A stretch of 64,000 bases of DNA from an uncultured Planctomycetales bacterium (GTDB taxonomy: Bacteria > Omnitrophota > Gorgyraeia > Gygaellales > Profunditerraquicolaceae). Shown piece after piece: positions 1 through 61,523 of the stretch (within the stretch, counting starts at the first letter, position 1; each line of letters opens with the position of its first letter). Under the pieces are notes generated by a model, which saw only the letters and a list, made by a program, of their open reading frames with translations, was not told the DNA's origin and searched no databases. Position numbers and translations under genes: made by a program. The stretch covers positions 9,512-73,511 of the forward strand of contig CAZJFL010000004.1 of NCBI GenBank assembly GCA_964545575.1, read 5' to 3'.

Positions 1-33
1 TTCAGCACGCGAACAACATCCCGCAGCAGAATA
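1..33 (-). repeat. Partial third copy of the 166-bp element, truncated by the window edge
   Basis: gcacgcgaacaacatcccgcagcagaatat matches the copy-2 terminus gcacgcgaacaaacccgcagcaaaatat. Confidence 0.5.
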
Positions 34-8925: not shown

Positions 8926-10008
8926 TTATCTTTGTAAAAATTTGGCTATTTTATCCCCGAATAACCTGCTTAAATCATTATAAGTGACGATTATCGCCAG
9001 GGAAAATATCACGGTTAATCCGATCTGGGTGACAATGCGCTCTGCCTTAAGGCTTAAGGTTTTGCCTCTTATTTTCTCGACCAGCAAAAACAAAAGGTGC
9101 CCGCCGTCTAAGACCGGGATGGGCAGGAGATTAAAGATGGCTAAGCTGACACTTAATACCGCGACCAGATGCAGGAGCGCGATAATACCCAGGCTTGCGG
9201 CTTGAGAAGTTATGTAAAATATCCCCAGCGGACCGGTCATAGATTCGCGCATCGAGAGTTTCCCGTTGATTATACGCCAAAGCGCTTTATAAGTCAGGAG
9301 TGTTAAGTCCCCGGTTTTTTTAAAGGCTAGCCAGAAAGATTCCAGGAATCCGTGCTTTACCTTTACGATTTCATCAAAAGGCGTAATGCCGATCAGGCCG
9401 ACGCTACGTTTCTGCCCCAGCTGATCATCCATGGATTTCTCTTTTATCCTGACATTTATATCGAGTTTCTTCTCTCGCCTAACCACAGAAAGCTTAACCG
9501 TGCCGGCGGCTTTTTTACTCTGGATTTTTTTCTGCAGCTCTTCCCAGAAATCTACTCCTTCACCGTCCACGGCGGTAATTTTATCGCCGACCTGCATGCC
9601 GGCCTCTTTTGCCGGGAAACCGTCGAGCAAGCCTCCTACTTTATTGGTTAACGTAGGGTAGCCGGCAAAGAAAATAAACCAGAAACACAAGAATCCCAAA
9701 ACGTAATTCAAGAGGGGGCCGAAAAATATGACTGCCGCGCGCTGTTTCGGGGGACGGGATAGAAATTCATCCGGATTACCCTTACACTCTTCCAAGTTAT
9801 CCCCGGCCAGTTTTACGTATCCGCCCACCGGGATTAAATTGAGCGAATATTCCGTATCGCGTTTCTTTTTGCTTACGATCCGCGGCCCGAAACCTAAAGA
9901 AAACTTCTCAACTTTAACGCCTATTCTTTTGGCGACGATGAAATGGCCGAACTCATGCACTAATATGAGCAGCCCTAAAATAAAGAAAAAAATAAGTAAG
10001 TGGACCAT
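8926..10008 (-). CDS. rseP: Site-2 zinc metalloprotease RseP family
   Basis: HEFGHF zinc motif, internal PDZ domain, multiple TM segments; conserved position after ispG. Confidence 0.88.
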   Translation of the reverse strand: MVHLLIFFFILGLLILVHEFGHFIVAKRIGVKVEKFSLGFGPRIVSKKKRDTEYSLNLIPVGGYVKLAGDNLEECKGNPDEFLSRPPKQRAAVIFFGPLLNYVLGFLCFWFIFFAGYPTLTNKVGGLLDGFPAKEAGMQVGDKITAVDGEGVDFWEELQKKIQSKKAAGTVKLSVVRREKKLDINVRIKEKSMDDQLGQKRSVGLIGITPFDEIVKVKHGFLESFWLAFKKTGDLTLLTYKALWRIINGKLSMRESMTGPLGIFYITSQAASLGIIALLHLVAVLSVSLAIFNLLPIPVLDGGHLLFLLVEKIRGKTLSLKAERIVTQIGLTVIFSLAIIVTYNDLSRLFGDKIAKFLQR

Positions 10009-15450: not shown

Positions 15451-15607
15451 ATAAGTTACGGAGCGAAGCGACGTAACTTATAAGTGCGAATTGACCCCGC
15501 CCTTTCTTAATCTATCGGCTATTTATTTTAGAAAGGGCGGGGTAAGTTCAGCCAACAGACTTACGTTCATTTCCTGCCTGCCGGCAGGCAGGCATTCCGT
15601 AAGTCTG
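15448..15607. promoter_or_regulatory. Structured intergenic leader: three consecutive stem-loops including one copy of the CCTGCCTGCCGGCAGGCAGG palindrome element (15556-15607)
   Basis: Inverted repeats cacataagttacg/cgtaacttataagtg, accccgccctttct/agaaagggcggggt, and cagacttacg..cctgcctgccggcaggcagg..cgtaagtctg. Confidence 0.6.
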
Positions 15608-15620
15608 GGCTTCACTTAAT

Positions 15621-31929: not shown

Positions 31930-32053
31930 AGGAAACTATAATTTTAGCATAAATTATGCCTAAATCAACTATATTTAATGCCTTTTAGCAATGTAGTACA
32001 ATGCCCCTGCCGAGCTGCTCTGCTTTAAGTCGCTTTTGCCCATACATATTAGT

Positions 32054-32219
32054 TTTGCTGCGGGTTTGTTCGCGCACTGAAATTTTTTGCCGTGCACTAC
32101 GGTTTACTCGTCACTGCGGACAGTATGCTTACGCGGATGCGCCACCTGCGTTCCTCGTAAGCCCTTGTGCACTCCTGCCAAAAAATTTCTAATGTGCGCT
32201 CACAAATCCCTCCGCAAAA
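32054..32219 (+). repeat. ~166-bp repeated element with imperfect terminal inverted repeats, copy 1
   Basis: About 90% identical to the reverse complement of 60935-61102; the termini ttttgctgcgggtttg / caaatccctccgcaaaa are mutual reverse complements. Confidence 0.85.
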
Positions 32220-32399
32220 CTCAAGCAATTGACTAAAATCGACATTCCTGCCCGCCAAAGTTTTAGTGGCGGGCGCTCGCACCTCGCCAGTGGCATTATT
32301 TACAACTAAATAATGCTGGTTAGCGGTTGGCACGGGGATGCTTCGCAGCGCATCTAGCGCAAGAAGCGCCCCGTGACAGGACCCGCTAAGCAGTTAAAA

Positions 32400-34478
32400 T
32401 TAAGTCTGCAAAATTGTGTCGGCTGCGGCTAAAACATCATCTACGCTGATAGCTTTAAGGCAGGCGAACTCTTTTTTACAGTTATGCGCCAGGCATTCAA
32501 TACATCCTACTGCCTTATGCAGATATCTGTCTTTTTTGCCTACCGGCCCCCAGCGTTTAGGGCTTAAGCCTTTTTGGCCTCTGCCGAAAATAGCAATTAC
32601 CGGCGTGTCGACACTAGAAGCAATATGCACCGGGCCGGAATCGTTAGAAATAAATAAAGCGCACCTCTTAAGCAAACTGGCTAATTGGCTCAGAGAAGTC
32701 TTACCCGCCAGATTAATTGCCGGAGAGCGCATATTCGCCAGCGCAAGCTCTGCTTTTTTTGTATCTTTTGGGCCGCTGATAATCAGGGTTTTAAAACCGT
32801 ATTTTTCTATTAACCTGTCGGCGACCTGGGCGAATCTTTCGTTGGGCCAGACCTTAGAAGGGCAGCTTGCCCCGGGATGAATAGCCAGAAGCCTATCTGT
32901 TTCTTTTATCCCCTCCTGGCGGAATAAACTCTCCACCCATTTTTCTGCTTCCGGCCTGAGGGGGATATATAATTCTTTATCTTGGGGAGTAATCCCTAAG
33001 TGCGCCAGCAGTCCAAGATTATAATCCAGCTCATGCTTTTCTCCCAGCTGTTTAGTATGCTTTATCCGGTCGGTAAGCAAAAACCCCATTTTACGGTGGT
33101 AACCTATTCTTCTGGGTATCCCGGAAAAAAACGCCACTAGATGCACGCGGTTGGTAGGATGAAGGATGAGTGCCAAATCAAACTTTTTCTGTTTTAAGTT
33201 TAAAGCAAACTTAATAGACCCCAGCCAGCTTTTCTCTTTTGCGTCTTTATCGTAAATAATCACTTCATCCAGATAAGGATTACCTTCCACTATCTCTTTT
33301 GTATAGGGGCTGACCATCATCGCGATATAGGCATGAGGGTATTTATCCCGGAGCGCCTTAATTACCGGTGTCGATAAAAGCACGTCTCCGACCCTATCCG
33401 TACGCGCTATTAAGATACGTTTAAAATCTGCCTCTAGACCCTGAACCCTGCCTGCCTGCCGGACAGGCAGGAACCCTGAACCCTGAACTAAAATATTTAT
33501 TACCTGCCTTAATACATCTTCTACCTTTACCAGGTGCATGCAGTCTAAAGTTCGGAACCTGCATTCTGCCTTCTCGCAGGGCCGGCAGAAGATTTCTTTT
33601 TTTACCGTAGCCCAAACACCCGACCAGGGCCCGTATTTTTTATCGCTGGTCGGGCCAAAGATTGCCACAATAGGTAGATCTAAATAACTGGCCAGATGCA
33701 GGACTGCGCTGTCATTAGTAATCAGGAGGCTTGCTTTTCTTAGTAAAGCGCCCAGCTGCGAGATCGTGGTCTTGCCGGCAAGGTCCAACAGGGAATGCGA
33801 AGATTGCTCGCCGATATATTTTGTGATAAATGCATCGGCCCTATCTCCTACCAGAATAACCTTTGCTGCTAATTCTCCTATAATCCGTTCTGCAAGCTGG
33901 GCGAACTTTTCTTTGGGCCATCTTTTAGTAGAGCTTCTGGCTCCCGGAGCAATAATAACTATTTTATCGTGTTGGGCTATGCTGTTTTCTTTGAATATAT
34001 TTTCGACATATTCCCTGTCCTGCGGCCCGATGCATAGGGAGCTCTCTATTGTCTTTTTCGCCTCCGAACCCTGAACTCTGCCTGCCTGCCGGACAGGCAG
34101 GAACTCTGAACCCTGAACTCTACTTAAATGCCTATCCTTCATATGTCCGCTACCCCGCAAAAAAATAGGCGCTTTGTATCTGGCAGGAAGCAACAATCCG
34201 AAAAAACTGTTGCGTAAATCCACGACCAGATCAAAATGTTCTTTTTGAAGGCGGCCAAACAGCTTTATTTTTTCTTTCAGCCGCGCATGTTTGTCATAGA
34301 TAATCAGGTTATCTACGGCAGGATTAGCCTCAAATATTCCTTTCGGGCGGGGGCCTGAGACAACGGTGATTTTAGCCTGCGGAAACTCCTTCCTTAAATA
34401 ATCCAGCGCCGGCAGGGTCAGTATCACATCTCCGATATTACTTAAGGTAACGAACAATATTTTATTGATCTTTGTCAT
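32400..34478 (-). CDS. Tandem fusion of two GT9 ADP-heptose:LPS heptosyltransferase modules
   Basis: Two full GT9 units (each ~330 aa with the GDVILTLPA / GDVLLSTPV N-motif). The palindromic repeat element encodes LPVRQAGRVQG at the inter-module junction and in a loop of module 1. Confidence 0.8.
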   Translation of the reverse strand: MTKINKILFVTLSNIGDVILTLPALDYLRKEFPQAKITVVSGPRPKGIFEANPAVDNLIIYDKHARLKEKIKLFGRLQKEHFDLVVDLRNSFFGLLLPARYKAPIFLRGSGHMKDRHLSRVQGSEFLPVRQAGRVQGSEAKKTIESSLCIGPQDREYVENIFKENSIAQHDKIVIIAPGARSSTKRWPKEKFAQLAERIIGELAAKVILVGDRADAFITKYIGEQSSHSLLDLAGKTTISQLGALLRKASLLITNDSAVLHLASYLDLPIVAIFGPTSDKKYGPWSGVWATVKKEIFCRPCEKAECRFRTLDCMHLVKVEDVLRQVINILVQGSGFLPVRQAGRVQGLEADFKRILIARTDRVGDVLLSTPVIKALRDKYPHAYIAMMVSPYTKEIVEGNPYLDEVIIYDKDAKEKSWLGSIKFALNLKQKKFDLALILHPTNRVHLVAFFSGIPRRIGYHRKMGFLLTDRIKHTKQLGEKHELDYNLGLLAHLGITPQDKELYIPLRPEAEKWVESLFRQEGIKETDRLLAIHPGASCPSKVWPNERFAQVADRLIEKYGFKTLIISGPKDTKKAELALANMRSPAINLAGKTSLSQLASLLKRCALFISNDSGPVHIASSVDTPVIAIFGRGQKGLSPKRWGPVGKKDRYLHKAVGCIECLAHNCKKEFACLKAISVDDVLAAADTILQT
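33438..33488. repeat. Palindromic element family 1 copy (GAACCCT heptads flanking CCTGCCTGCCGGACAGGCAGG), in-frame at the GT9-GT9 junction
   Basis: Seen directly; encodes VQGSGFLPVRQAGRVQG on the minus strand. Confidence 0.9.
34066..34119. repeat. Palindromic element family 1 copy, in-frame within GT9 module 1
   Basis: gaaccctgaactctgcctgcctgccggacaggcaggaactctgaaccctgaactc. Confidence 0.9.
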
Positions 34479-35603: not shown

Positions 35604-36633
35604 GAGCCCCTAAAAGGCTCGGCCTTGTCTTATCCCGAAGCAGCCCTAATATAGCCGAAGATAATTCTGTGGGCTCGGCCGGTTTAACCAGCAAGCCGTT
35701 ATATCCGTCTTTAATCAGGCTTCTTATCCCTCCGATATCAGAGCCGATCACGGCCAGGCCCGCTGCCATCGCCTCGATCAGGCTTAAACCTAAACCTTCT
35801 GCGAGCGAGGGCATGACAAATAAATCCATCACCGCCAAAATATCCCTGGCCTCCTTAACCGAAGGTATAAAATAAACATTTTGTGTAATTCCTAAACGGC
35901 GGGCCAGAGCTACTAAGTCCTGTTTCATTTTGCCGTCTCCCACGATCAGTAACCGGGCATCGGGAAACGTACCTAAAACCTCTTTCATCGCCTCGATAAG
36001 ATAAATATGGCCCTTGACATCCGATAACCTGGCTATAATCCCCACTACCGGGCCGTTGCCCAAGCCTAATTCTTTCTTTTTTTCAACTCTGAACTCTGCC
36101 TGCCTGCCGGACAGGCAGGAACTCTGAACTCTGAACTTATCTACGTCTATACCATTATGTATTAAGCTGATATTTTCTTCCTTCACCTTAAAATCTTCGA
36201 TAAGATGTTCTTTAACCGCTTCGCTGATGGCAATAACTTTTAGCCCCCAGCAGGGAAAAATCCGGCGGAAAATACGCTGCTTAAAGAAACCGTGGCAGGT
36301 GGAAATGTATGGCTTTCCTGAAAAACGGTGGATTAAACCGGCTACTACCTGGGTGACGCGCGTATTAGCATGAATGATCTCTATATTTTTTTCTTTTACC
36401 TGTTTAAGCAACTTCAAAATACTGATAAAAACCCCGGGGCTTACCTCCTGTTTTGTTGCCAGCGGCACCGGGATATGGACTATGCCTTCCTGGCTAAACT
36501 TAGAGAGAAGCTCTCCCCCTCCCGAAGCCAGATATACCTGATGGCCTCTTTTTCGCATACCGCCGGCTAAAGTCAGGAGATAGCTGGTAACTCCGCCGGT
36601 GTTCAAATGGTTTGTCAAATAGAGAATATTCAT
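35515..36633 (-). CDS. GT4 glycosyltransferase (WaaG/RfaG-like)
   Basis: GT4 N-terminal GG motif (TNHLNTGGVTSY), C-terminal E-x7-E region; palindromic element inserted in the inter-domain linker. Confidence 0.8.
   Translation of the reverse strand: MNILYLTNHLNTGGVTSYLLTLAGGMRKRGHQVYLASGGGELLSKFSQEGIVHIPVPLATKQEVSPGVFISILKLLKQVKEKNIEIIHANTRVTQVVAGLIHRFSGKPYISTCHGFFKQRIFRRIFPCWGLKVIAISEAVKEHLIEDFKVKEENISLIHNGIDVDKFRVQSSCLSGRQAEFRVEKKKELGLGNGPVVGIIARLSDVKGHIYLIEAMKEVLGTFPDARLLIVGDGKMKQDLVALARRLGITQNVYFIPSVKEARDILAVMDLFVMPSLAEGLGLSLIEAMAAGLAVIGSDIGGIRSLIKDGYNGLLVKPAEPTELSSAILGLLRDKTRPSLLGAHAQEFIRQHFSQEDMLGETEKLYLEYRHV
36085..36137. repeat. Palindromic element family 1 copy, in-frame in the GT4 linker (encodes KFRVQSSCLSGRQAEFRVE)
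   Basis: caactctgaactctgcctgcctgccggacaggcaggaactctgaactctgaactt. Confidence 0.9.
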
Positions 36634-38723: not shown

Positions 38724-40723
38724 AAAATCCTCTTTAGCGCCTCGCTTACGGTCAGGTTATCAGAAAGGGGCTGGATTTCTGGCTTTTTTTCCCACAACTC
38801 CTCTAGCACCCTCCCTAAATTAGCTGCCTCGCTGATATATATATTTTTTCTCTCTATAAGGCTAGCCAAGAACCTCTTGTGTTTTGCCCCTACTCCTGCG
38901 GCAGCAAAAGTCAAAACATAACGGCGGCTCGCCACAGCCTCGGAAATCATAGAGATGCTTTCCGGAGAAGTTATTACCAGGCGGCTCGCGCCTAGTATCC
39001 CGCCCACGGCAAAGGGCAGGTTTTTCTCATTGGCGATCACCAGAAACCTGCAGCGCGGATAATCGCTGAATTCCGCCCTGACTAACTCTTCTGCCTCTTT
39101 CGGGGTCCGGCGCGAAGTAGTCACCAGTATCAGCGCGTCATTTTTCTCTAAGAATGCCTTTACCTGGCTGATTACTTCCCGCAGAGAATCCCGGCTTAAG
39201 CGGAAATCCTTATTATCTCCTCCGATAAGCATCCCCAAAACCAGGTCTTTGTCAATCTTCGCCAAAGACTTCAAGAGCGCGGCTTCCTCTTTCAGCAAGT
39301 CCTCGTCTATTAAGTTTAACGCGCCCTCGATTAGCACGGTATTTTTCTTAAAAACCGGCCTGTGGCTTTGGCTAAAGGAAGCCAAACCCTGCCTGCCGGC
39401 AGGCAGGCATTGCCTTGCTGGCTGATCGTGCCGGGGTATAATCACCAAGTCAAATCTCTGCATACTGAAAACAGAAGGCCGCATCAGTACTACCGACTTA
39501 GCCAAGTTTTCCTTGGATAAAATAAAATTAACCGCGGCGAGCCCAGAACCGCAGGAAATAATCAAGTCGTATTTTTTTCTCGTCAGGGCTTGATAGGTAT
39601 CGGCGGTTAAAAATTTCTTCAGGCACCAGAGGCATCCCTGACAGTGGTATTTTCCGGCGAGGCAGGCGCTAAAAGTAAGGGCCTGGCTGCTCAGCCTATT
39701 TTTAAACTTTACCTCTATAATCTCGCTCTGGCTGTTTATCCCCCGGTCTTTAAAATGCCTTTGGGCTATCGCGGCCGTAGCCTGTGCCTGGCTGAGGTGG
39801 CCGGCTTTACCATCGCTTAAAATTAGGATATTCCTCTCTTGGGAATACTTCCAGATTTTATAAAACCAGAGGTATTGTTCAGGGTACCTGCTGATATAAT
39901 CCTGGAATATCTGCATCAATCCTTCTAGATTACGGCGGACGTCTTCTTCGCTATTACCGGTTTTTATCAGCTTAAAGGGGGGCACAAAAATAATTTTCAT
40001 ATACGGGCCGCGCAGGCGAACATAAAAACCCGGGATAATTGCCGCATCGTACTTTAAAGCCAGCCTCACCGCCCCGCTTGCCATAGAGGCATCCCGGCCG
40101 AAGAATCTAACCGGAACGCCGGAACTTCCTCCCTGATCAACGGTCATACCTATCGCCTGGTTATTTTTCAGTATCTGAATTAACTGACGGGTCTGATTTT
40201 TCCTCTGGACTAATTTAGCCCCTTTTTGGCTGCGGTAGGCATTCAGCAGCCGGTTTAAACGGAGAAGCTTTTGTTCGCGTATAAGTAAGAATAAAGGGAA
40301 GCCTAAGTTTGTGCAGACGACGTTAGAGATTTCCCAGCTTCCTCCGTGCGCCCCCAAAAGGATTACTCCTTTTCCCTTTTGAAAACCCTCCTCGATATGC
40401 TGCCTGCCTTCGCAAGTGACGTATTTGGCGATATATTGCTTATTCACCCGGGGAATAAGCAATATTTCTATCAGGCTCTGCCCGAAGTTGCGGTAAAAAT
40501 CTTTTGCGAGCTGTTTTAACTGGCGCGGTGAGAGCCTGTCCCCGAAAGCGGTTTTCAGGTTTGCGTAGGCGACTGCCCGGTGCTTGGCATCAAAACAATA
40601 AAACAATTCACCGATGGCCCGGCCTAAAAAGAAACTTACAAACAAGGGCATTACCCTAAAAATCGGCCCTGCCAGCCTAAAGATTATATATCCTGTCCAA
40701 TCGGCTAAAGAACTCTTCTTCAT
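38720..40723 (-). CDS. Lipid A biosynthesis acyltransferase (LpxL/HtrB family) fused to an ELM1/DUF1022-like C-terminal domain
   Basis: N-terminal 300 aa matches lauroyl/myristoyl acyltransferase; C-terminal domain of unknown function contains a palindromic element insert (QPARQCLPAGRQGLASFSQ). Confidence 0.65.
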   Translation of the reverse strand: MKKSSLADWTGYIIFRLAGPIFRVMPLFVSFFLGRAIGELFYCFDAKHRAVAYANLKTAFGDRLSPRQLKQLAKDFYRNFGQSLIEILLIPRVNKQYIAKYVTCEGRQHIEEGFQKGKGVILLGAHGGSWEISNVVCTNLGFPLFLLIREQKLLRLNRLLNAYRSQKGAKLVQRKNQTRQLIQILKNNQAIGMTVDQGGSSGVPVRFFGRDASMASGAVRLALKYDAAIIPGFYVRLRGPYMKIIFVPPFKLIKTGNSEEDVRRNLEGLMQIFQDYISRYPEQYLWFYKIWKYSQERNILILSDGKAGHLSQAQATAAIAQRHFKDRGINSQSEIIEVKFKNRLSSQALTFSACLAGKYHCQGCLWCLKKFLTADTYQALTRKKYDLIISCGSGLAAVNFILSKENLAKSVVLMRPSVFSMQRFDLVIIPRHDQPARQCLPAGRQGLASFSQSHRPVFKKNTVLIEGALNLIDEDLLKEEAALLKSLAKIDKDLVLGMLIGGDNKDFRLSRDSLREVISQVKAFLEKNDALILVTTSRRTPKEAEELVRAEFSDYPRCRFLVIANEKNLPFAVGGILGASRLVITSPESISMISEAVASRRYVLTFAAAGVGAKHKRFLASLIERKNIYISEAANLGRVLEELWEKKPEIQPLSDNLTVSEALKRIL
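39365..39420. repeat. Palindromic element family 2 copy (GCCAAACC-CTGCCTGCCGGCAGGCAGG-CATTGCCTTGC), in-frame in a CDS
   Basis: Shares more than 35 bp of identity with the intergenic copy at 41771-41816. Confidence 0.9.
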
Positions 40724-41755: not shown

Positions 41756-41878
41756 ATGGCTTTGGCTTGTATGGAAAGCCAAACCCTGCCTGCCGGCAGG
41801 CAGGCATTGCCTTGCCGGCTTATGGCTTTGGCTTATGTGGAAAGCCAAACCATTGCCTTACCGGCTTATGGCTTTGGT
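41756..41878. repeat. Composite intergenic copy of palindromic element family 2, with duplicated GGCTTTGGCTT-GGAAAGCCAAACC arm and core palindrome
   Basis: Seen directly; the two arm copies are 41756-41784 and 41823-41851. Confidence 0.85.
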
Positions 41879-47032: not shown

Positions 47033-48300
47033 GCCGAGGGTTCATTAACCCTTCCTAAAAACAAAATATTCCCTGTTTTTTTCTGTTCTATGATGAATAT
47101 AAATGGGTGGTCTGCTTTGAATATTTTTGGTTCTTCTGGTATAGATACACATTCCTGCATAATCACCGCTGTTGCTGCTGCTGCTTCAGTCCCCTCTTCA
47201 TTCACTTCCACAAATGCCTGATGAATTACCTGGTCTATATTCAATCGTTTATTGCCGGTCATCCCTGAAAAATCTGCTTCCTCTCCAAAATCAATACCTA
47301 GTGTAAAGGCTGTCGGCATACCCATCTCTGCAAGGTCTTTAGCCATAAAATACTCGGTTTCAAATTTAAATTTGGGTATATATACCTTAACTTCCCGTTC
47401 GTGGAGGCCTTTTCTCCATTCAGAAAGCTTTTCGGTAGTCAAAGATTCTTCTAAAGTTTTTAGATCGCCGCTCTTGGGAAGAAGGATAAGCATTGATAAA
47501 TCCCGCCCTTTGTAAGGAAGCTCCAGAATCTGTATTTGGTCATTCTCAAAATAACCGAGTTCTTCTATTTTAGCCAGATGCATCATTTGAACTTTAGCCG
47601 ATCTCTCAGGAGTGACCTTAAAATCTTCCTCTTTTGTAAGTTTAGGGTCGAATTGTTTAAACCACTTTCCTTTAAAATAAATGGCATTAGTGAGAATAAG
47701 ACGCGTCAAACCATTGATTACTCCAGATGGAATTAAGTCTTTTATCCTCTTATTTGTGCGCTCCTCTACCCAGTTATTTATAGTCAGGCGGGATGGCTCA
47801 GGCTCGCGAATAAAATCAAGGTTAGTCACCTTACCGCCGTAATATTTATCAATGAGATTAAAGTATTCCGGAAGAAATTGGTAATCTTTCTCTGCCCAAA
47901 GGGCATTTGCAGTCGATAGGATATAATCTTTATCTTTTTTATTTATTTCATTATAAATCTCCGTAAAAGCGTTCCTTCGTACATTGTCATCTATCGGAAA
48001 ATGAAAAACCGCCTGAATCTCTTCTTGGGTCTTACCCCGCGCTCCTTCATAAGCCATGGCTAAAGCAGTTGAAATACTATATGGCGAGAAGAATATATTG
48101 CCTTCTTTTGATTTATATTTCGCGTATAAATCAAAGGCGAACTGGTTGTTGGCCGATACTATGTCCGTGACACTAACAGGACTCGCAGCATTATTGCTCG
48201 TCTGTGAAAAGGCGGGATTAGGAAATAAGAGAACGGGAATAAAAAGCAAAATAATAAATAGTGACTTTTTAGACATACATACCTCCTGTTTTAGCCGCAT
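47029..48300 (-). CDS. Serpin (serine protease inhibitor) with signal peptide
   Basis: Full serpin core: NAIYFKGKW, hinge/RCL region, C-terminal FKADHPFIFIIE...ILFLGRV. Confidence 0.85.
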   Translation of the reverse strand: MRLKQEVCMSKKSLFIILLFIPVLLFPNPAFSQTSNNAASPVSVTDIVSANNQFAFDLYAKYKSKEGNIFFSPYSISTALAMAYEGARGKTQEEIQAVFHFPIDDNVRRNAFTEIYNEINKKDKDYILSTANALWAEKDYQFLPEYFNLIDKYYGGKVTNLDFIREPEPSRLTINNWVEERTNKRIKDLIPSGVINGLTRLILTNAIYFKGKWFKQFDPKLTKEEDFKVTPERSAKVQMMHLAKIEELGYFENDQIQILELPYKGRDLSMLILLPKSGDLKTLEESLTTEKLSEWRKGLHEREVKVYIPKFKFETEYFMAKDLAEMGMPTAFTLGIDFGEEADFSGMTGNKRLNIDQVIHQAFVEVNEEGTEAAAATAVIMQECVSIPEEPKIFKADHPFIFIIEQKKTGNILFLGRVNEPSA

Positions 48301-48456
48301 TTTGCGGGGGGATTGCTTACTAGCGGGTGACGGACGAGACGAAGGCCTTGCCGCGCGCAGCGTAAGCGAGCTTAGGCAGAGGTGGCTCGGCCGGCAGGAC
48401 CCGCTAAGCAGTTCAGACCCGCAAAATCTATAAAGAATGGATAAAAATTTTTACAA

Positions 48457-49329: not shown

Positions 49330-51323
49330 TTAGCTTTTTCCTCTGGAAGGGTACGCGAGGTAAACCTGCATTTGGGGAAATTTGAACAACCGTAGAAGAA
49401 TCCGCGCTTTGAGCGCCTTTCAATTAATTCGCCGCCGCATAGGGCTTCAGGGCATTTGACGCCGGTAGTAATGGATTTAGAAAACGCGCATTGCGGGTAA
49501 TCTGAGCAGCTCAAGAATTTTCCCCGGCGGCCCCACTTGATCACCATCGGCTTGCCGCATTTCTCGCAGACCTCTTCAGTATACACCACTTCTTTTTTAA
49601 TATTGGCCTGCGCAAAATCGAGGCTTACCTTAAAAGGCTGGTAAAAATCCTGCAAAACTTTTATTTTATCAATTTTTCCCTCGGCAATCTCATCCAGCTC
49701 TTCTTCCATCAGCGCGGTAAATTTTTCATCCATAATCTTGGGGAAGTACTCCACGAGCATCTCGCAAACCTTAAATCCCAGCTCGGTGGGATGAAAATAG
49801 CTCCTGATGCGGCGGGCGTAATCGCGTTGAATGAGCGTATAAATAATAGGCGCGTAAGTGGAGGGCCGGCCAATGCCGTCTTCTTCCAGGGACTTGACCA
49901 AAGAACTGTCGGAGAATCTCGCCGGAGGCTTGGTAAAATGCTGCGAGGGAATTAATTTAACTAAATCTAGGATATCTCCCTGAGCCAGCGGCGGAATAAT
50001 ATTCTTTTCTTTCTCGTCATTATTATTTTTGTTATATACTTTGGCAAAGCCGGCAAAGATAAGCTTGCTTCCTGAAGCGGTAAACAGGTATTTTTCGGCA
50101 TTGATATTTACCGTAGTGACAGAATAAAGTGCCGGCGTCATCTGGCTAGCCAGAAAACGATTATAAATCAAAGCGTATAATTTATACTGGTCTTCACTTA
50201 AAAAAGTTTTCAGGTTTTCGGGAGAATGGTCTGCTAAAGAAGGCCTGATGGCTTCATGCGCCTCCTGGGCAAACTTCTTGGCCTTATAAACATTGGGTGT
50301 TTTGGGCAGATAATCCTTGCCGAATTCTTTCGTAATCAGGTGCCTTATTTCTTTCAAGGCAATGGCAGAAACATTGGTAGAATCCGTGCGCATATAGGTA
50401 ATTAAACCCGTAGGACCTTCCTTGCCGATATCAACACCTTCGTATAACTCCTGCGCCACCATCATGGTCTTCCTGCCGTTAAAGCCCAATTTATTAAAGG
50501 CTTCCTGCTGCAGGGTGCTGGTAATAAAGGGCGGGTCGGGGTAACGTCTTTTTTCTGTATTTTTAATCTCGGAAACTACAAATTTCTTTCCGTCTATATC
50601 TACCACTATCCTGTCGGCTTCTGTTTTATTTGTTATCTTGGCCTTTTTGTCGGCAATTTTATCTAACTTGGCGGTGAACGAACTCTGAACTCTGAACTCT
50701 GAACTCTGAACTTTCTTTAACTCTACCTCGACCTCCCAATATTCCCGGGGGGTAAAGTTTTTAATCTGTTTTTCGCGGTCGATAATCAGTTTTAAAGCCA
50801 CAGACTGCACGCGCCCCGCGCTTAAGCCGCGCACGATCTTCTTCCACAATAAAGGGCTTAAGAAATAGCCCACAATTCTATCCAGTATCCTGCGGCCTGC
50901 CTGCGCTTCAATTAACTTCGTATCAAAATCGCGCGGCTTCCCAAAAGCTTCTTTTACTGCGCTAGGCGTAATCTCATGAAAGACTACCCGCAAAACTTTC
51001 TTTCCCTTAAATAACCTCTCCCTAAGCTGCCAACCGATAGCCTCGCCCTCCCGGTCAGGGTCAGTGGCAACATAAATGCACTCTGCATCCTTGGCGTCTT
51101 TTTTTAGAGCGGTTAATACCTTTTGCCTTCCCGAAATCACCACATATTCCGGCTTAAAATCTGCTTCTATATCCACGCCTAAGGTGGTCTTAGGTAGATC
51201 GATCAGATGCCCCATAGAGGAGACCACCGTAAACTTATCGCCGAGTATCTTGCCTATGGTTTTAGCTTTAGTAGGCGACTCCACAATGACTAAACTTTTC
51301 TTACTCATTTTAATTCCTGACAA
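49326..51323 (-). CDS. topA: DNA topoisomerase I with C-terminal Zn ribbons
   Basis: Toprim N-terminus (VIVESPTKAKTI), catalytic Tyr region, C4 ribbons; carries an in-frame GAACTCT heptad insertion (QSSEFRVQSS). Confidence 0.9.
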   Translation of the reverse strand: MSGIKMSKKSLVIVESPTKAKTIGKILGDKFTVVSSMGHLIDLPKTTLGVDIEADFKPEYVVISGRQKVLTALKKDAKDAECIYVATDPDREGEAIGWQLRERLFKGKKVLRVVFHEITPSAVKEAFGKPRDFDTKLIEAQAGRRILDRIVGYFLSPLLWKKIVRGLSAGRVQSVALKLIIDREKQIKNFTPREYWEVEVELKKVQSSEFRVQSSFTAKLDKIADKKAKITNKTEADRIVVDIDGKKFVVSEIKNTEKRRYPDPPFITSTLQQEAFNKLGFNGRKTMMVAQELYEGVDIGKEGPTGLITYMRTDSTNVSAIALKEIRHLITKEFGKDYLPKTPNVYKAKKFAQEAHEAIRPSLADHSPENLKTFLSEDQYKLYALIYNRFLASQMTPALYSVTTVNINAEKYLFTASGSKLIFAGFAKVYNKNNNDEKEKNIIPPLAQGDILDLVKLIPSQHFTKPPARFSDSSLVKSLEEDGIGRPSTYAPIIYTLIQRDYARRIRSYFHPTELGFKVCEMLVEYFPKIMDEKFTALMEEELDEIAEGKIDKIKVLQDFYQPFKVSLDFAQANIKKEVVYTEEVCEKCGKPMVIKWGRRGKFLSCSDYPQCAFSKSITTGVKCPEALCGGELIERRSKRGFFYGCSNFPKCRFTSRTLPEEKAK
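50677..50716. repeat. GAACTCT heptad array (about 5 units) without the core palindrome, in-frame inside topA
   Basis: Same heptad as the family 1 element flanks. Confidence 0.85.
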
Positions 51324-52401: not shown

Positions 52402-52961
52402 TTCTTTTGGGTTATTAGTTTAGCGATCTTAGCTACTACTTCCTTCACGGTAATTCTGGAGGTATCGATAACCTTATCGGCTTGGGCATAATAAGGGGCG
52501 CGCAATTTTAATAACAACTTTATCTGTTTTTTTGGATTAGGCACGTTTAAGAGCGGGCGATACCCGAACTTAAAAGTTCTTTTCCAGATTATGTCGGGCC
52601 TGGCGGTTAGACAAATCATCTTCCCGCTTGCTTTCATAGTTTTGACGTTATCCGGATCAACCACAATCCCACCGCCGCAAGCCACCACAAAATTTTTCTC
52701 TTTAGCTACCTCTTTTAAAAGGCGCCTTTCTATTTTGCGAAAATAGGGTTCCCCTTCTTTGGCAAATATCTCGGTGATGAGGCGCTTTTCTTTTAACTCG
52801 ATCAATTCGTCTAAATCCAGGAAACGCCATTTTTTCTTTTTAGCCAGTTCCCGGCCGACCGCGGTCTTGCCCGTACCCATGAATCCCACTAAATAAATAT
52901 TATTCATCTTTAGGGACACCCTTTCTGCCAAAGCTAAGGGTGTCCCCCTTAACTTTGACAC
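52398..52961 (-). CDS. aroK: Shikimate kinase
   Basis: P-loop GFMGTGKT; likely true start at MNNIYLVG (~52907). Confidence 0.85.
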   Translation of the reverse strand: MSKLRGTPLALAERVSLKMNNIYLVGFMGTGKTAVGRELAKKKKWRFLDLDELIELKEKRLITEIFAKEGEPYFRKIERRLLKEVAKEKNFVVACGGGIVVDPDNVKTMKASGKMICLTARPDIIWKRTFKFGYRPLLNVPNPKKQIKLLLKLRAPYYAQADKVIDTSRITVKEVVAKIAKLITQKK

Positions 52962-52998
52962 AGAGACACCCTCCCGATTAGCAGAAAGGGTGTCCCTG
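52915..52998. promoter_or_regulatory. Nested inverted repeats GGGACACCCTTTCTGC ... GGGTGTCCC ... GACACCC ... GCAGAAAGGGTGTCCC able to form alternative hairpins; candidate attenuator between spoVG and aroK
   Basis: 16-bp perfect outer IR plus internal 9-bp complementary segments, seen directly. Confidence 0.5.
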
Positions 52999-57514: not shown

Positions 57515-58503
57515 TAAAATGGGGAACGCCCTGCCTTAAATTTTAGGTAATCCTGAATGATCTTTTTATGGTCAAAGGCAAAATCTAACTTCAAAACCTC
57601 GCTTAATTTTACTATTCTTATTGCCTTGGCATCATCGCCTGCTTTGGGCTTACCTTCTGCCCTTACCAGAAAAACCGTGTCGATAGTGTGAAATCGCGGG
57701 TCGCGCTGGGGGTCAGAATAGGTATGAAACTGTTTTACTTCTACAGCGTCCAAATTTGTCTCTTCTTTTACCTCCCTAATTACCGCCTCCTCTAAACTCT
57801 CGCCGTAATCCAGGAAGCCGCCGGGCAGGGCAAAGCCAAAAGGCGGGTTGCTGCGCTCGATCACCACAATCCCATCATCCCCGCCTGCCGGCGAGACGGG
57901 AATCTCAATGATAGCATCTGCCGTCATAAAAGGCCCCTGCTGTAATTTCCGGGTAACATAATCAAGATAGCTTATCACTCCTTTATTAAAGACGTCATAA
58001 GCCTCTAAATCGTACAGGCAGAAGATTATCTCTTTTAAGCTGGTCTTATTTTCACGCAGGTGCTTTAACACTTCCTGGGCCATGATTTTGGCGGATGCCA
58101 ACAGAGGAAATCCGCCTACGCCGCAGCCTAAGGCCGGAAAAGCGATTGATTCTATCTTTAATTCTTCGGCGACTTCCAAAGCGCTCTTACAGGAATTCCT
58201 GATTTTGATTTCATCAGTTTCGAAAATCCCTGCCTGCCGGCAGGCAGGCATCCCCATAGTCGCGGCATGGATTACATATTTAGCCGGTAAGCTCCCGGCA
58301 GAAGTAAATACCGCCTCGCCTATTTTTATGGGGCCTTTTTTTAGCGCTTCCTCCTCTATTGATTGGCCGCCCTTTTTCCTGATCGCGCCGGCAACCCCGC
58401 CGCCCATGGCTAACTTATTATTGGCGGCATTGACAATAGCCTCAACTTTTAATTCCGTAATATCGCCTTGGCAGATTTTAATTTCGGTCTCTTTAATCAG
58501 CAT
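57514..58503 (-). CDS. Macro domain (ADP-ribose binding/deacetylase-like) fused to NUDIX hydrolase
   Basis: N-terminal macro (CQGDITEL..AIVNAAN..GGGVAGAI); C-terminal Nudix box GGFLDYGESLEEAVIREVKEETNL; palindromic element in-frame in the macro domain. Confidence 0.75.
   Translation of the reverse strand: MLIKETEIKICQGDITELKVEAIVNAANNKLAMGGGVAGAIRKKGGQSIEEEALKKGPIKIGEAVFTSAGSLPAKYVIHAATMGMPACRQAGIFETDEIKIRNSCKSALEVAEELKIESIAFPALGCGVGGFPLLASAKIMAQEVLKHLRENKTSLKEIIFCLYDLEAYDVFNKGVISYLDYVTRKLQQGPFMTADAIIEIPVSPAGGDDGIVVIERSNPPFGFALPGGFLDYGESLEEAVIREVKEETNLDAVEVKQFHTYSDPQRDPRFHTIDTVFLVRAEGKPKAGDDAKAIRIVKLSEVLKLDFAFDHKKIIQDYLKFKAGRSPF
58222..58255. repeat. Solitary core palindrome CCTGCCTGCCGGCAGGCAGG in-frame in the macro domain (encodes MPACRQAG)
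   Basis: Seen directly at 58229-58248. Confidence 0.9.
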
Positions 58504-59229: not shown

Positions 59230-60840
59230 CTATTTTACCAGCCTTTTTGCCGCTACTAGGGCCTGTTTTTTGGTTTTAATCTTGCCGATTGCCTGTAGCT
59301 CCTCTATTTCGGACAGGATCTTCCCGATTAAGGGGGAAGGGGTTAATTTTAATCTCTCTATCAGGTCGTCGCCGTTAATCAGCCGCGGCAGCTTCTTTTT
59401 TTCCTTAAGTTTTTTGAAGTATTCGCGGATTAAGTTAAAACATACCTTTTCATGAGTGATACGCGATTCGTCCGACGTCAAAGGCCCGCGGGTGGCGCGC
59501 TGGTCGGCGATGGAAATCAAAAGCGTGCTTACGCCTTCTCTTGCCGCATCGCGGAAATACCTAAACTTTGCCCGCGCGCTGATATCCTCGTTATCAGCCA
59601 AGTATCCGGGGCGCAGATGCCAGAAGATCATTTTTTCCAAGGCCTGTAGTTCGTCATTGGAAAGTTTCAGGCGCTTGGCAACGACTTCCATGATGTCCGC
59701 ACCGATACGTTCGTGGCCATGAAACATAGTTTTACCTTCCTGGCGGCGGCGGGCCTGCGGTTTTCCGATATCGTGTAAAAGCGCTCCTAATTTTATCAGG
59801 GCGCGGCGTTTCCTTTCGGCGCAAATTATCTCGTTCAGGTAATCCCGTATATCTTTGTTGTTTTTATTCCCCTCTAGCACGCTTTCCAGCTGTTTTATCG
59901 TCTCTAAAGTATGCTTCCAGACATCCAAATGGTGATACGGCCCCTGCTCCACCCCCCGCATCAGCTCAATCTCCGGGATGATTATTTTTAAGATGCCGAG
60001 TTGGTCTAATTTTAGCAGGTGCCCGAAAGCGTCCGGCCGCTCTAAAATCTTAAACAATTCATCACGGATGCGCTCGCAGGAAATTCCGGAGAGTTTTCCT
60101 TTCTTTACTTTTACTAATTTTAATGTCTCTTTATCAATTCCGAAACCGAATATAGCGGATAAACTGAAGGCGCGTAAAATCCTTAAAGGGTCTTCGTCAA
60201 AAGCCTTTTTTGCTACCATGCGGATAATCTTTGCCTTTAAATCTTTTCTCCCGCCGCGCGGGTCAATTAATTTATCATCTAAATTTCCGGCGAGTATATC
60301 CTCTAACCCCAAAGCCATGGCGTTGACGGTAAAATCACGGTGCAGGAGGTCAGCGTTTAAATCTTTGCCGCGTAAATCGGTAAAATCCAGGGTATAAACC
60401 TTATCTTTAATTCTTTTTACTAAGCGCGCGCAGCCGTGCTCCTTGTCTAAAACTACGAACCCGGCCCGGATCTGCTCCCTCAAGGCCCGGGCAAAGTTGA
60501 TCGCCCCTTTTTTAAGACAAAAATCTATATCCGGATTATCCTTTTCTCTCTTTAACAGGATATCGCGCAGATACCCACCGACCAGATACAGTCTTACCTT
60601 CTTTGCCCTAGCAAATCGCTGGATGTCTTTTAGCAGATTTTTTACTTCCGGAGCTAATGTATGAGTCATAGAATAATTATGCTGTTTAGCGGCTGTCTTG
60701 TCTTGTTTCTCGCAGGGGCGCTCATTTTGCCCCAGCGTGGCAAAATTTCGCTCGGCCTGCGGACCCTCGCTCTCGCCGAGCATTCGATAGCGGGCGAACC
60801 GTGCCCCCTCGGGTTCCTCGGACGCCCTGCTCGAAATCAA
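59230..60840 (-). CDS. cca: CCA-adding enzyme / poly(A) polymerase family tRNA nucleotidyltransferase with HD domain
   Basis: Pol-beta NTase motif LVGGYLRDILL...DIDF; C-terminal HD (HDIGK). True start probably MTHTLAPE (~60669); the upstream extension is GC-rich and structured. Confidence 0.8.
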   Translation of the reverse strand: MISSRASEEPEGARFARYRMLGESEGPQAERNFATLGQNERPCEKQDKTAAKQHNYSMTHTLAPEVKNLLKDIQRFARAKKVRLYLVGGYLRDILLKREKDNPDIDFCLKKGAINFARALREQIRAGFVVLDKEHGCARLVKRIKDKVYTLDFTDLRGKDLNADLLHRDFTVNAMALGLEDILAGNLDDKLIDPRGGRKDLKAKIIRMVAKKAFDEDPLRILRAFSLSAIFGFGIDKETLKLVKVKKGKLSGISCERIRDELFKILERPDAFGHLLKLDQLGILKIIIPEIELMRGVEQGPYHHLDVWKHTLETIKQLESVLEGNKNNKDIRDYLNEIICAERKRRALIKLGALLHDIGKPQARRRQEGKTMFHGHERIGADIMEVVAKRLKLSNDELQALEKMIFWHLRPGYLADNEDISARAKFRYFRDAAREGVSTLLISIADQRATRGPLTSDESRITHEKVCFNLIREYFKKLKEKKKLPRLINGDDLIERLKLTPSPLIGKILSEIEELQAIGKIKTKKQALVAAKRLVK

Positions 60841-60934
60841 ACCAAGCCATCCGCTAAAGATAAATTAAACTATCAAAATGAATCTGGCGGGTTTTCGAGC
60901 GAATGGAGGTTTTAGCTAATCGCCAGATTAGATA

Positions 60935-61102
60935 TTTTGCGGAGGGATTTGTGAGCGTGCAATAAGAAATTTTTTGGCAGGAGTGCACAAGGATTCACGA
61001 GGAACGAAGGACGCGTATCCGCGTAAGCATACTGTCCGTAGTGACGAGTAAACCGTAGTGCACGGCAAAAAATTTCCGCACGCGAACAAACCCGCAGCAA
61101 AA
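60935..61102 (-). repeat. ~166-bp TIR element, copy 2 (inverted relative to copy 1)
   Basis: Direct alignment to copy 1; substitutions are clustered. Confidence 0.85.
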
Positions 61103-61112
61103 TATCTATATT

Positions 61113-61523
61113 TTACTTCTCTTTATTAAATATCTCAGACTGCTTGAGCACCGAGTCATCCACGAATATCGGCGCACGGGCGCGCACCGCCAGGGCAATG
61201 CTGTCAGAAGGGCGGGCATCGATGATTTTTTCCTCTCCGGAGCTGGTCTTTAGCACTAGTTTTGCATGGAAAGTATTCTCTTCCAATTTATCGATAATCA
61301 CGCGCTCGATAGTCGCCTCTAAATGCTTGATGGTGGTGTGCATTAAATCGTGGGTCAGCGGCCGGGGCGGATTAAAGCCGCTGATCTTTAATTTTATCGC
61401 TGAGGCCTCGGCTAGGCCGATCACAATAGGCAGGATCCTCTCGCCGCCCTTTTCTTTAAGCACAATCAGCTGGTCATGCCTTTTTTCATCAATCACAATT
61501 TTACTCAATTCCATCTCTAGCAT
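61113..61523 (-). CDS. Bifunctional nuclease family protein (BFN, DUF151)
   Basis: ILPIVIGLAEASAI...PRPLTHDLM signature of DUF151. Confidence 0.7.
   Translation of the reverse strand: MLEMELSKIVIDEKRHDQLIVLKEKGGERILPIVIGLAEASAIKLKISGFNPPRPLTHDLMHTTIKHLEATIERVIIDKLEENTFHAKLVLKTSSGEEKIIDARPSDSIALAVRARAPIFVDDSVLKQSEIFNKEK

Follow-up and report, generated by a model that had tools for sequence, protein, structure and literature searches.

The DNA examined here, called the window throughout, is the whole 64,000-nucleotide stretch at positions 9,512 to 73,511 of contig CAZJFL010000004.1, from an uncultivated bacterium placed in the Omnitrophota. It contains three copies of a repeat of about 167 nt, all intergenic and all between minus-strand genes, as had been noted in a reading made from the sequence alone. 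Copy 1 (32053–32219, plus strand) is antisense to both flanking genes. Copy 2 (60935–61102, minus strand) is in sense with its neighbours and begins 10 nt past the stop codon of a bifunctional-nuclease gene (61113–61523). Copy 3 (1–31, minus strand) begins 4 nt past the ruvB stop codon and is represented by its 5′ end only, the remainder lying beyond the window edge. A repeat search of the window aligned copies 1 and 2 as inverted arms of 141 nt at 91% identity (32053–32193 and 60962–61102) and a second arm pair of 40 nt at 85% identity (32180–32219 and 60935–60974), in agreement with the two full inverted copies of the sequence-only reading. The truncated third copy claimed in that reading also stands. 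The terminal pattern GCTGCGGGN{2,4}TGTTCGCG has exactly three matches in the window (8–27 on the minus strand, 32057–32074 on the plus strand and 61081–61098 on the minus strand) against a chance expectation of 0.00, and the fragment at the window start is therefore a true copy; the locus was also assembled independently (L001:5623–5791), and there the copy is entire at 169 nt. The covariance model R1 scores copy 1 at 177.9 bits on the plus strand and 50.9 on the minus strand, scores copy 2 at 178.3 bits, and matches copy 3 as a truncated hit in which nucleotides 1–31 correspond to model positions 1–30. The flagged sequence is a real multi-copy DNA repeat of about 167 nt that folds into one long hairpin.

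The one point that favours an assembly artefact or a chance palindrome is that some short-read contigs break within the repeat. Against this, copy 2 is crossed in full by at least seven assemblies made independently, and copy 1 by at least three, with identical unique flanks each time, and R1 detects identical copies in two of them. The assemblies are from ENA (ERZ272489xx), Logan (SRR84372xx) and JGI (3300028156/28191/28299). Together with some 60 related copies in other genomes and the terminal-motif count of three against 0.00, this leaves an artefact practically no chance, and the assembly duplication that had been named as one way to refute the finding is not what these assemblies contain. 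The small open reading frames (ORFs) within the element had been suspected to be artefacts, and they are: a search of 5.8 billion proteins with its 62-residue ORF, tried as a candidate gene, returned a single match, which is itself another copy of the element. The inverted pair had also been suggested to drive inversion of the intervening DNA. Two 91%-identical inverted copies 28.7 kb apart are what commends this idea, in which the chief importance of the repeat would be to flip the 28.7-kb segment. However, every contig that crosses copy 1 or 2 (at least seven samples from three data sources) has the window arrangement, the others end inside the repeat, and no recombinant junction was found in any assembly crossing the copies. 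A 167-nt repeat at 91% identity is, moreover, a poor substrate for homologous recombination. We consider this role very improbable.

The element forms a single imperfect hairpin of about 70 bp along its whole length. Copy 1 folds with a minimum free energy of −64.8 kcal/mol (z −7.2), its reverse complement with −69.4 kcal/mol (z −6.6) and copy 2 with −60.3 kcal/mol (z −5.9). The earlier description of terminal inverted repeats of about 45 nt was correct in that the ends are complementary, but it was too narrow, as the palindrome spans the full element; the internal hairpin gcttacg...cgtaagc is perfect in copy 1 only. Substitutions between copies had been read as possibly compensatory, which holds for one of the two clusters named: cactg versus tgcgg is compensated on the opposite arm (GCGCAC/GTGCGC versus GCGTGC/GCACGC). 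The other, gcgccacctgcg versus acgcgtccttcg, lies in the fast-changing apex and has no consistent partner. Two further compensated differences, GTGCAC/GTGCAC versus GTCTGC/GCAGAC and TTTTGC/GCAAAA versus TTCTGC/GCAGAA, are present among the three copies of the window genome.

Covariation was assessed across 44 full copies (alignment A2), with a structure of six helices and 44 pairs drawn from the same alignment. Standard pairs occupy 97.1% of the pair cells, and 13 pairs show changes on both sides (121 cells). None of 500 shuffles reached the observed pairing and double-change values, sliding the partner by 1–3 columns lowered pairing to 33–58%, and RNAalifold independently recovered the main stems. 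The covariance check that had been proposed across copies thus returned compensatory change in abundance. Certain irregularities are also kept, namely two bulges (one of 4 nt and one of 1 nt), a C·C mismatch in helix P3 and a UC/UC internal loop; type-C apices alone have a second UC/UC loop. Sequence is conserved mid-arm (GCCGU, CGGUUUAC and UCGUAAAUCCUUG), while the apex is variable, comes in several types, some with a covarying stem of their own, and tolerates insertions (up to 232 nt for the whole element) and deletions (down to 66–108 nt). The tips of the element covary in L030, L036b and L054 (the L labels denote collected loci). In L036:1460–1624, the sole full copy that R1 found and the search pattern missed, both outer stems are swapped for compensated sequence (AATTTAGGGG/CCCCTAAATT and AAGCAC/GTGCTT). 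The tips are conserved as structure rather than as sequence. Variants of the stems P2, P3 and P4 and of the apex occur in all combinations, a sign that copies have exchanged sequence by recombination or gene conversion.

The 1,936 pair cells include 1,868 Watson–Crick, 38 A–C and 11 G–U combinations; outside the columns fixed by the search pattern, a hand re-tally of per-pair counts gave 19 A–C and 10 G–U. An RNA that is selected for its fold on one strand is normally rich in G–U and poor in A–C. Because G–U is no commoner than A–C here, the constraint would appear to act on both strands or on the DNA, unless the arms are homogenized. On our reading the fold is actively maintained, most probably at the DNA level.

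Further copies, for which a search had been proposed, exist: about 60 more are present in public data, all from Omnitrophota. The 3′-arm pattern TTTCTN{5,8}CGCTCACAAATCCCTCC is found at 55 metagenome loci and at seven loci in metagenome-assembled genomes (MAGs), six labelled Candidatus Omnitrophota and one Planctomycetales, and the named homologues of a flanking protein come from Omnitrophica or Omnitrophota sources. An apex 20-mer (CGGACAGTATGCTTACGCGG) has no match in GTDB genomes; the apex is specific to lineages. A covariance search of the collected loci (cmsearch with R1) recovered more than 60 copies, each scoring 92–190 bits on one strand and 28–64 on the other, a difference that gives the element a clear polarity. 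Its length is 166–172 nt, it is non-coding and its internal ORFs are not conserved. In Rfam 15, the whole window has no match at the gathering score, and three regions searched at E values up to 10 returned weak, unrelated matches, all far under the gathering score. 6S RNA, large ornate RNAs, ribozymes and riboswitches were accordingly rejected as candidates, there being no Rfam match, and the window contains no tRNA or tmRNA. Literature searches with the sequence strings of the element and on Omnitrophota repeats returned no paper. Two other repeat modules of the relatives, AGGGACTGTCCCT and CTCAAGCCCGTTTCCGAACGAGC, are absent from the window.

Sequence conservation extends downstream of the hairpin. 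A linker of about 45 nt (consensus GGCTAAAAyCnnCATTCGCTCGmAmmCCGCCAGATTCAT) is found next to hairpins in many loci, in either orientation. After copy 2 it lies at 60878–60926 on the minus strand (CTGGCGATTAGCTAAAACCTCCATTCGCTCGAAAACCCGCCAGATTCAT, read directly) and is itself a repeat: the motif follows the hairpin in L016, L033, L038, L040, L049, L050, L056, L088 and L091, and runs the other way in L025, L031 and L053. After copy 1, by comparison with other linkers, it occupies 32231–32296 on the plus strand and is broken by a small extra hairpin (CCTGCCCGCCAAAGTTTTAGTGGCGGGCG). Beyond the linker lies a second multi-copy unit, module 2 (UAGCGGGUGGC...GACAGGACCCGCUAA), with long forms of 164–174 nt and short forms of 64–86 nt. 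The long form follows copy 2 (60685–60858, minus strand; alignment A3), and a short form (TTAGCGGTTGGC...GACAGGACCCGCTAAG), shared with L032 and L079, follows copy 1 (32320–32390, plus strand). Copy 3 has neither linker nor module 2. A lone short form without a hairpin is present at 48321–48407 (plus strand), enclosed by ATTTTGCGGGG...CCCGCAAAAT (48290–48430, plus strand), a sequence similar to the stem at the base of the hairpin repeat (TTTTGC..GGG/CCC..GCAAAA). This site may be a hairpin with a replaced interior, or may reflect a shared target or closing stem.

When RNAalifold was applied to 16 long forms of module 2 (A3: the window and L012, L019, L021, L033, L034, L040, L045, L048, L051, L052, L055, L057, L059, L060 and L067), 47 pairs were predicted, 26 with compensatory changes. 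The motifs GAGAGCGAG, AAGCGAG, GAGCGGUG and GCGAGAA are conserved as single strands. Module 2 matches no Rfam family and may represent a separate, new structured element of RNA or DNA. It has also distorted a gene call: the ORF at 59230–60840 (minus strand, 536 residues), and likewise the public calls, carries a false N-terminal extension of 58 codons through module 2. Orthologues of this CCA enzyme have 478–486 residues, and translation probably begins at the ATG at 60667 (MTHTLAPEV...).

The junction between the nuclease and CCA-enzyme genes was compared in the window and five relatives. In the window it measures 445 nt (to the ATG at 60667) and holds hairpin, linker and module 2. In L088, whose nuclease is 92% identical to that of the window, it measures 247 nt and holds hairpin and linker, and in L091 (nuclease 86%) it measures 127 nt and holds a 40-nt remnant of the 5′ arm with the linker. 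The site is empty in L089 (nuclease 89%, junction 17 nt), L090 (88%, 0 nt) and L092 (84%, 39 nt). The L088 hairpin (L088:8736–8903) has the same flanks as copy 2, with AGATA before TTTTGC and TATCTAATCTGGCGATTA after GCAAAA. The first 55 nt of its 5′ arm are 100% identical to those of copy 2, the 50-nt apex belongs to another type, and there is no module 2. This contrast implies that the apex was replaced through conversion by another copy, or else that constraint is very uneven. The reverse situation is seen at the purM/purD junction. These genes overlap (ATGA) in L088; in L089 they are parted by an insert of 353 nt, with a hairpin inside it (L089:4149–4316), which is flanked by a diverged duplication of about 9–15 nt (GTAGAGATTATTTGA and GAAATAATAATATGA versus the single GTAGAGATAATATGA), with the stop and start codons both preserved. 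Presence and absence of the element at orthologous sites are thus seen at both junctions. L043 holds two copies of one 106–108-nt deletion derivative 6.7 kb apart, and the density in unbiased DNA of the relatives is two copies in 85 kb. The element reaches a site within a block, which may be the hairpin alone, the hairpin with the linker, or the hairpin with linker and module 2.

The position of the copies bears on a possible role for the host. Orientation was counted after removal of duplicates, and as the loci are partly orthologous there are fewer independent events than these counts suggest. In 42 of 55 cases the upstream gene shares the strand of the element, and between co-directional genes the element is sense 28 times and antisense 9–10 times (one mis-called ORF, at window copy 2, was corrected by hand). 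About three-quarters of the copies are in sense with the genes and usually start 0–40 nt past a stop codon; the median gap from the upstream stop codon is about 30 nt and is often 0–16 nt, while some 300 nt separate the element from the next gene. Its neighbours include ruvB, trpS, nrdR, purM and genes of that sort, and no transposase or other recurrent gene adjoins the copies in the collected loci. A copy is kept after ruvB in the window, L024 and L020 (the L024 version being a 66-nt deletion derivative), after a heptosyltransferase gene in L009 and L060 as well as the window, and in front of a DS-like gene in both the window and L040. Copies at such orthologous junctions in different species, although sometimes flipped, point to long persistence. 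Because about three-quarters are sense and start 0–40 nt past the stop codon, the sense copies are probably transcribed as a duplex of about 70 bp at the 3′ end of the upstream mRNA, where, by conjecture, the duplex could serve as a stabilizer or as an RNase III site. Position and orientation make such a 3′ hairpin role plausible.

These observations bring in the first rival, a structured RNA selected by the host on the strand that it shares with the flanking genes. It would act in cis, as a hairpin in the 3′ untranslated region or between cistrons that affects mRNA stability or processing, or it would form part of a two-domain RNA of about 450 nt made up of the hairpin and module 2. The strongly covarying pairs of the hairpin and of module 2 (26 of 47 in the latter), the conserved internal loops and bulges, a sequence far better conserved than the flanking genes, the 3:1 sense bias with starts just past stop codons, and the retention of copies at orthologous junctions in several species all speak for it, as does one conserved U–G pair in module 2 (U–G in 12 of 16 forms, C–G in three and U–A in one). 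By contrast, the hairpin has no excess of G–U, and a quarter of the copies, window copy 1 included, are antisense to both neighbours. The element is absent from the nuclease/CCA junction of three close relatives, derivatives of 66–108 nt and a 40-nt remnant persist, and the apex has been swapped between orthologous copies. The hairpin is bordered by TTTT on its 5′ side and AAAA on its 3′ side on either strand, so that an RNA would carry U4 before it and A4, not a U-run, after it; no copy has a terminator-like site, and no promoter-like site is consistently tied to the element. With no Rfam family matched either, we judge a host-selected RNA to be unlikely. The small RNA gene considered in the sequence-only reading is weakened by the same findings. 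Compensatory change between copies, also raised in that reading, is indeed extensive.

A different view of the element is given by one group of metagenome loci from sister lineages, in which the hairpin lies within non-coding composite units of about 430–480 nt. Their order is an inverted repeat (5′-TGTAWWGTYCATAGACATRGGTAAC), the hairpin, a degenerate repeat copy, a long module 2 and an inverted repeat ending ...ACA-3′. Terminal inverted repeats of this type, 25–27 nt long, bound the composites in about 16 loci, and each composite is inserted just upstream of a sigma-70-like promoter of the next gene. In eight composites (one each in L017, L018, L028, L042, L052 and L055 and two in L036), the TGT...ACA inverted repeats are abutted by locus-specific direct repeats, of which six are clear (15–17 nt, with at most one mismatch) and two are looser. 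The clear ones are AAATTGGGAAATAATT in L018, CGGCAGGAGATGAAA and ACGAAAATCAATAAyT in the two L036 composites (a and b), AAATACTCkGTATTTT in L028, AGTAGCGGTATAA(w)A in L055 and ATTTACTATGTTTAAA in L042; those of L052 and L017 are similar but less exact. Such repeats and ends are the classical mark of DDE transposition. The flank ...CATAGACATGGGTAAC, considered as a divergent gene start (M-S-M-N/D-...), was rejected: no long ORF begins there, and the motif is the composite inverted repeat. Likewise, TCTATGACTCATACA at the start of the window CCA gene was considered as a relic of that repeat and rejected, as L088, which lacks module 2, has an ordinary gene start at that place.

Casposons generate duplications of 14–15 bp. 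They were considered for the 15–16-bp repeats, but TGT ends with 15–17 bp fit the ISTde1 subgroup better, and no Cas1 gene was seen. Direct repeats of 15–17 bp and ends beginning with TGT are described for this subgroup of the IS1202 family in the part of the source that was available (bioRxiv 10.1101/2022.12.17.520857), a part in which MITE (miniature inverted-repeat transposable element) derivatives of the family are not mentioned. The sister-lineage composites share the 5′-TGT inverted repeats and the locus-specific direct repeats of 15–16 bp. They differ in being non-coding and about 450 nt long, no transposase gene or full-length element with such ends was found in the collected loci, and the window copies lack composite ends altogether. 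The composites may have arisen as MITEs from the IS1202/ISTde1 group.

On these grounds, our preferred reading, held with moderate confidence, is that the element of about 167 nt is the hairpin module of a modular, MITE-like, fold-back family of non-coding, non-autonomous insertion elements specific to Candidatus Omnitrophota. A DDE transposase from the ISTde1 subgroup would mobilize the composites in trans, as suggested by their end signature only, and the three window copies would be old immobile relics or blocks spread by recombination. Since the window copies have neither composite ends nor a target duplication, we infer their mobility from the relatives. The fold would be kept up by gene conversion from arm to arm and from copy to copy, together with selection for a structure recognized as DNA. 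The sequence-only reading had already raised a MITE-like non-autonomous element. The multi-copy, non-coding nature of the repeat, the filled and empty orthologous sites and the sister-lineage composites with inverted repeats and target duplications bear this out, but the window copies themselves lack such ends, and the check for target-site duplications at them, which had also been proposed, found none.

Several observations weigh against an insertion-element family. The composite-type inverted repeat has no match in the window at up to three mismatches, and neither the window copies nor the other naked hairpins show a target duplication: among 61 copies the flanks are never direct repeats. 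The flanks extend the palindrome by 0–2 nt in 44 of the 61 and, in a small number, by as much as 14 nt, and TA or another short target duplication, tried for the naked hairpins, gave no consistent pattern. Neither the 544 kb of loci nor the viral contigs yielded an autonomous element whose ends match; the viral-contig matches considered as such an element (19 to a 16-mer and three to a 17-mer) are chance matches. Three further points fit a host-selected function as well: the conserved sequence lies mid-arm and not at the tips, orthologous copies persist across species at the ruvB, heptosyltransferase and other junctions, and stems are 100% identical over 55 nt where a flanking protein reaches 92%. 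A model of purely selfish DNA does not account for the 3:1 bias in orientation, and the counts are drawn from partly related loci and are not independent events.

Transposition of another kind would be REPIN-like: a domesticated Y1 transposase (RAYT, IS200-like) would move a hairpin of two inverted repeat units in single-stranded form, and the element would be vertically inherited and long-lived. A full-length hairpin with covariation confined to Watson–Crick pairs, naked copies without target duplication or conserved tips, and long persistence at orthologous sites would all suit such elements, for which behaviour of this kind is described in the literature (PMC3116915; bioRxiv 10.1101/2021.07.10.451892). 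The REPIN/RAYT system (PMC3116915) resembles ours in its long hairpin of two inverted halves, extragenic position, vertical persistence and arms that evolve in a compensatory manner, and differs in that the Omnitrophota arms are not REP units, carry no GTAG/CGTC tag and occur at lower density, with no RAYT identified, though no systematic search was made. More specifically, a REP unit is a palindrome of 20–40 nt, whereas the arms here are not self-complementary, P2 and P4 states on one arm vary independently, the hairpin foot has no conserved GTAG or CGTC and its flanks differ among copies. The density of two copies in 85 kb is modest. Composites with DDE-type inverted repeats and a 15–16-bp duplication are not made by Y1 transposases, and no RAYT gene was seen near any copy, again in the course of inspection and not of a systematic search. 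A REPIN-like origin therefore seems improbable to us.

Among other known systems, Correia elements of Neisseria, ERIC of enterobacteria, the modular BOX of pneumococcus and BIME of E. coli are bacterial MITEs or fold-back intergenic repeats. The Omnitrophota family resembles them in being small (100–250 nt), non-coding, multi-copy and intergenic, in forming long hairpins that would often be co-transcribed with their neighbours, and in showing both orientations, mosaics of modules, deletion derivatives, and presence and absence among relatives. It differs in host phylum, has no sequence similarity to them, is conserved mid-arm and keeps its fold through unusually many compensatory changes. Correia elements, in addition, have 26-bp terminal inverted repeats and a TA duplication, whereas most Omnitrophota copies have neither conserved terminal repeats nor a duplication. 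Integron attC sites are likewise imperfect palindromes of similar size just past a stop codon and co-oriented with the gene, in which structure is kept over sequence and extra-helical bases are conserved. They have RYYYAAC/GTTRRRY core sites and belong to cassette arrays with an intI gene. The Omnitrophota element lies beside housekeeping genes and not in cassette arrays, has no integrase, and ends in TTTTGC...GCAAAA instead of those core sites. The kind of repeat is known (Correia, ERIC, BOX, BIME and REPIN types), but neither Rfam nor the literature searched describes this family, its host phylum or module 2.

Other repeats in the window are separate from the hairpin family. A 60-nt palindromic repeat (GAACYCTGAACYCTGCCTGCCTGCCGGACAGGCAGGAACYCTGAACYCTGAACT) occurs at 33430–33489 and 34060–34119, within an ORF at 32400–34478 (minus strand), and a third time at 36078–36137. 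In the 692-residue double glycosyltransferase-9 gene it is translated in frame twice (...QGSEFLPVRQAGRVQGSEA... and ...QGSGFLPVRQAGRVQGLEA...), and both segments are alignment gaps in a 60%-identical orthologue (L009). These repeats look like in-frame insertions, reminiscent, by analogy, of Rickettsia palindromic elements. Another family, with the perfect palindrome core CCTGCCTGCCGGCAGGCAGG, is present at 15564–15611, 39379–39426, 41776–41823 and 58220–58267; the copies at 39379 and 41776 are 96% identical over 48 nt. Short tandem or direct repeats lie at 41756–41877 (ATGGCTTTGGCTTRTRTGGAAAGCCAAACC twice and CATTGCCTTRCCGGCTTATGGCTTTGG twice), a tandem run of the heptamer GAACTCT at 50680–50720, and an inverted repeat of 33 nt with a 20-nt spacer at 52912–52997 (AGGGACACCCTTTCTGCC...GGCAGAAAGGGTGTCCCT).

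The mobile DNA of the uncultivated Omnitrophota is practically undescribed. The hairpin family explains why short-read assemblies of their genomes break at particular intergenic sites, and it accounts for false ORFs and false N-terminal extensions, such as the 58 surplus codons of the CCA-enzyme gene in the window. Covariance models of the modules would improve the annotation of Omnitrophota MAGs. With dozens of copies and many compensated stems, the family is also a natural dataset on the upkeep of long DNA palindromes in bacteria. Module 2 is a candidate structured element that is worth a test of its own. By analogy, the hairpin and module 2 together could be a transposon-borne structured nucleic acid with its own job, either an RNA or folded-DNA cofactor of a DDE (IS1202-type) transposase or a module that benefits the host, an idea that we regard as speculative and decidedly doubtful. 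Were the cofactor version true, the structure would serve end recognition or target choice, in analogy to the bridge, seek and omega RNAs; were the host-beneficial version true, a 3′-end or processing module would let the elements persist. Either version, if true, would explain why the fold and the mid-arm sequences are conserved far above the flanking genes.

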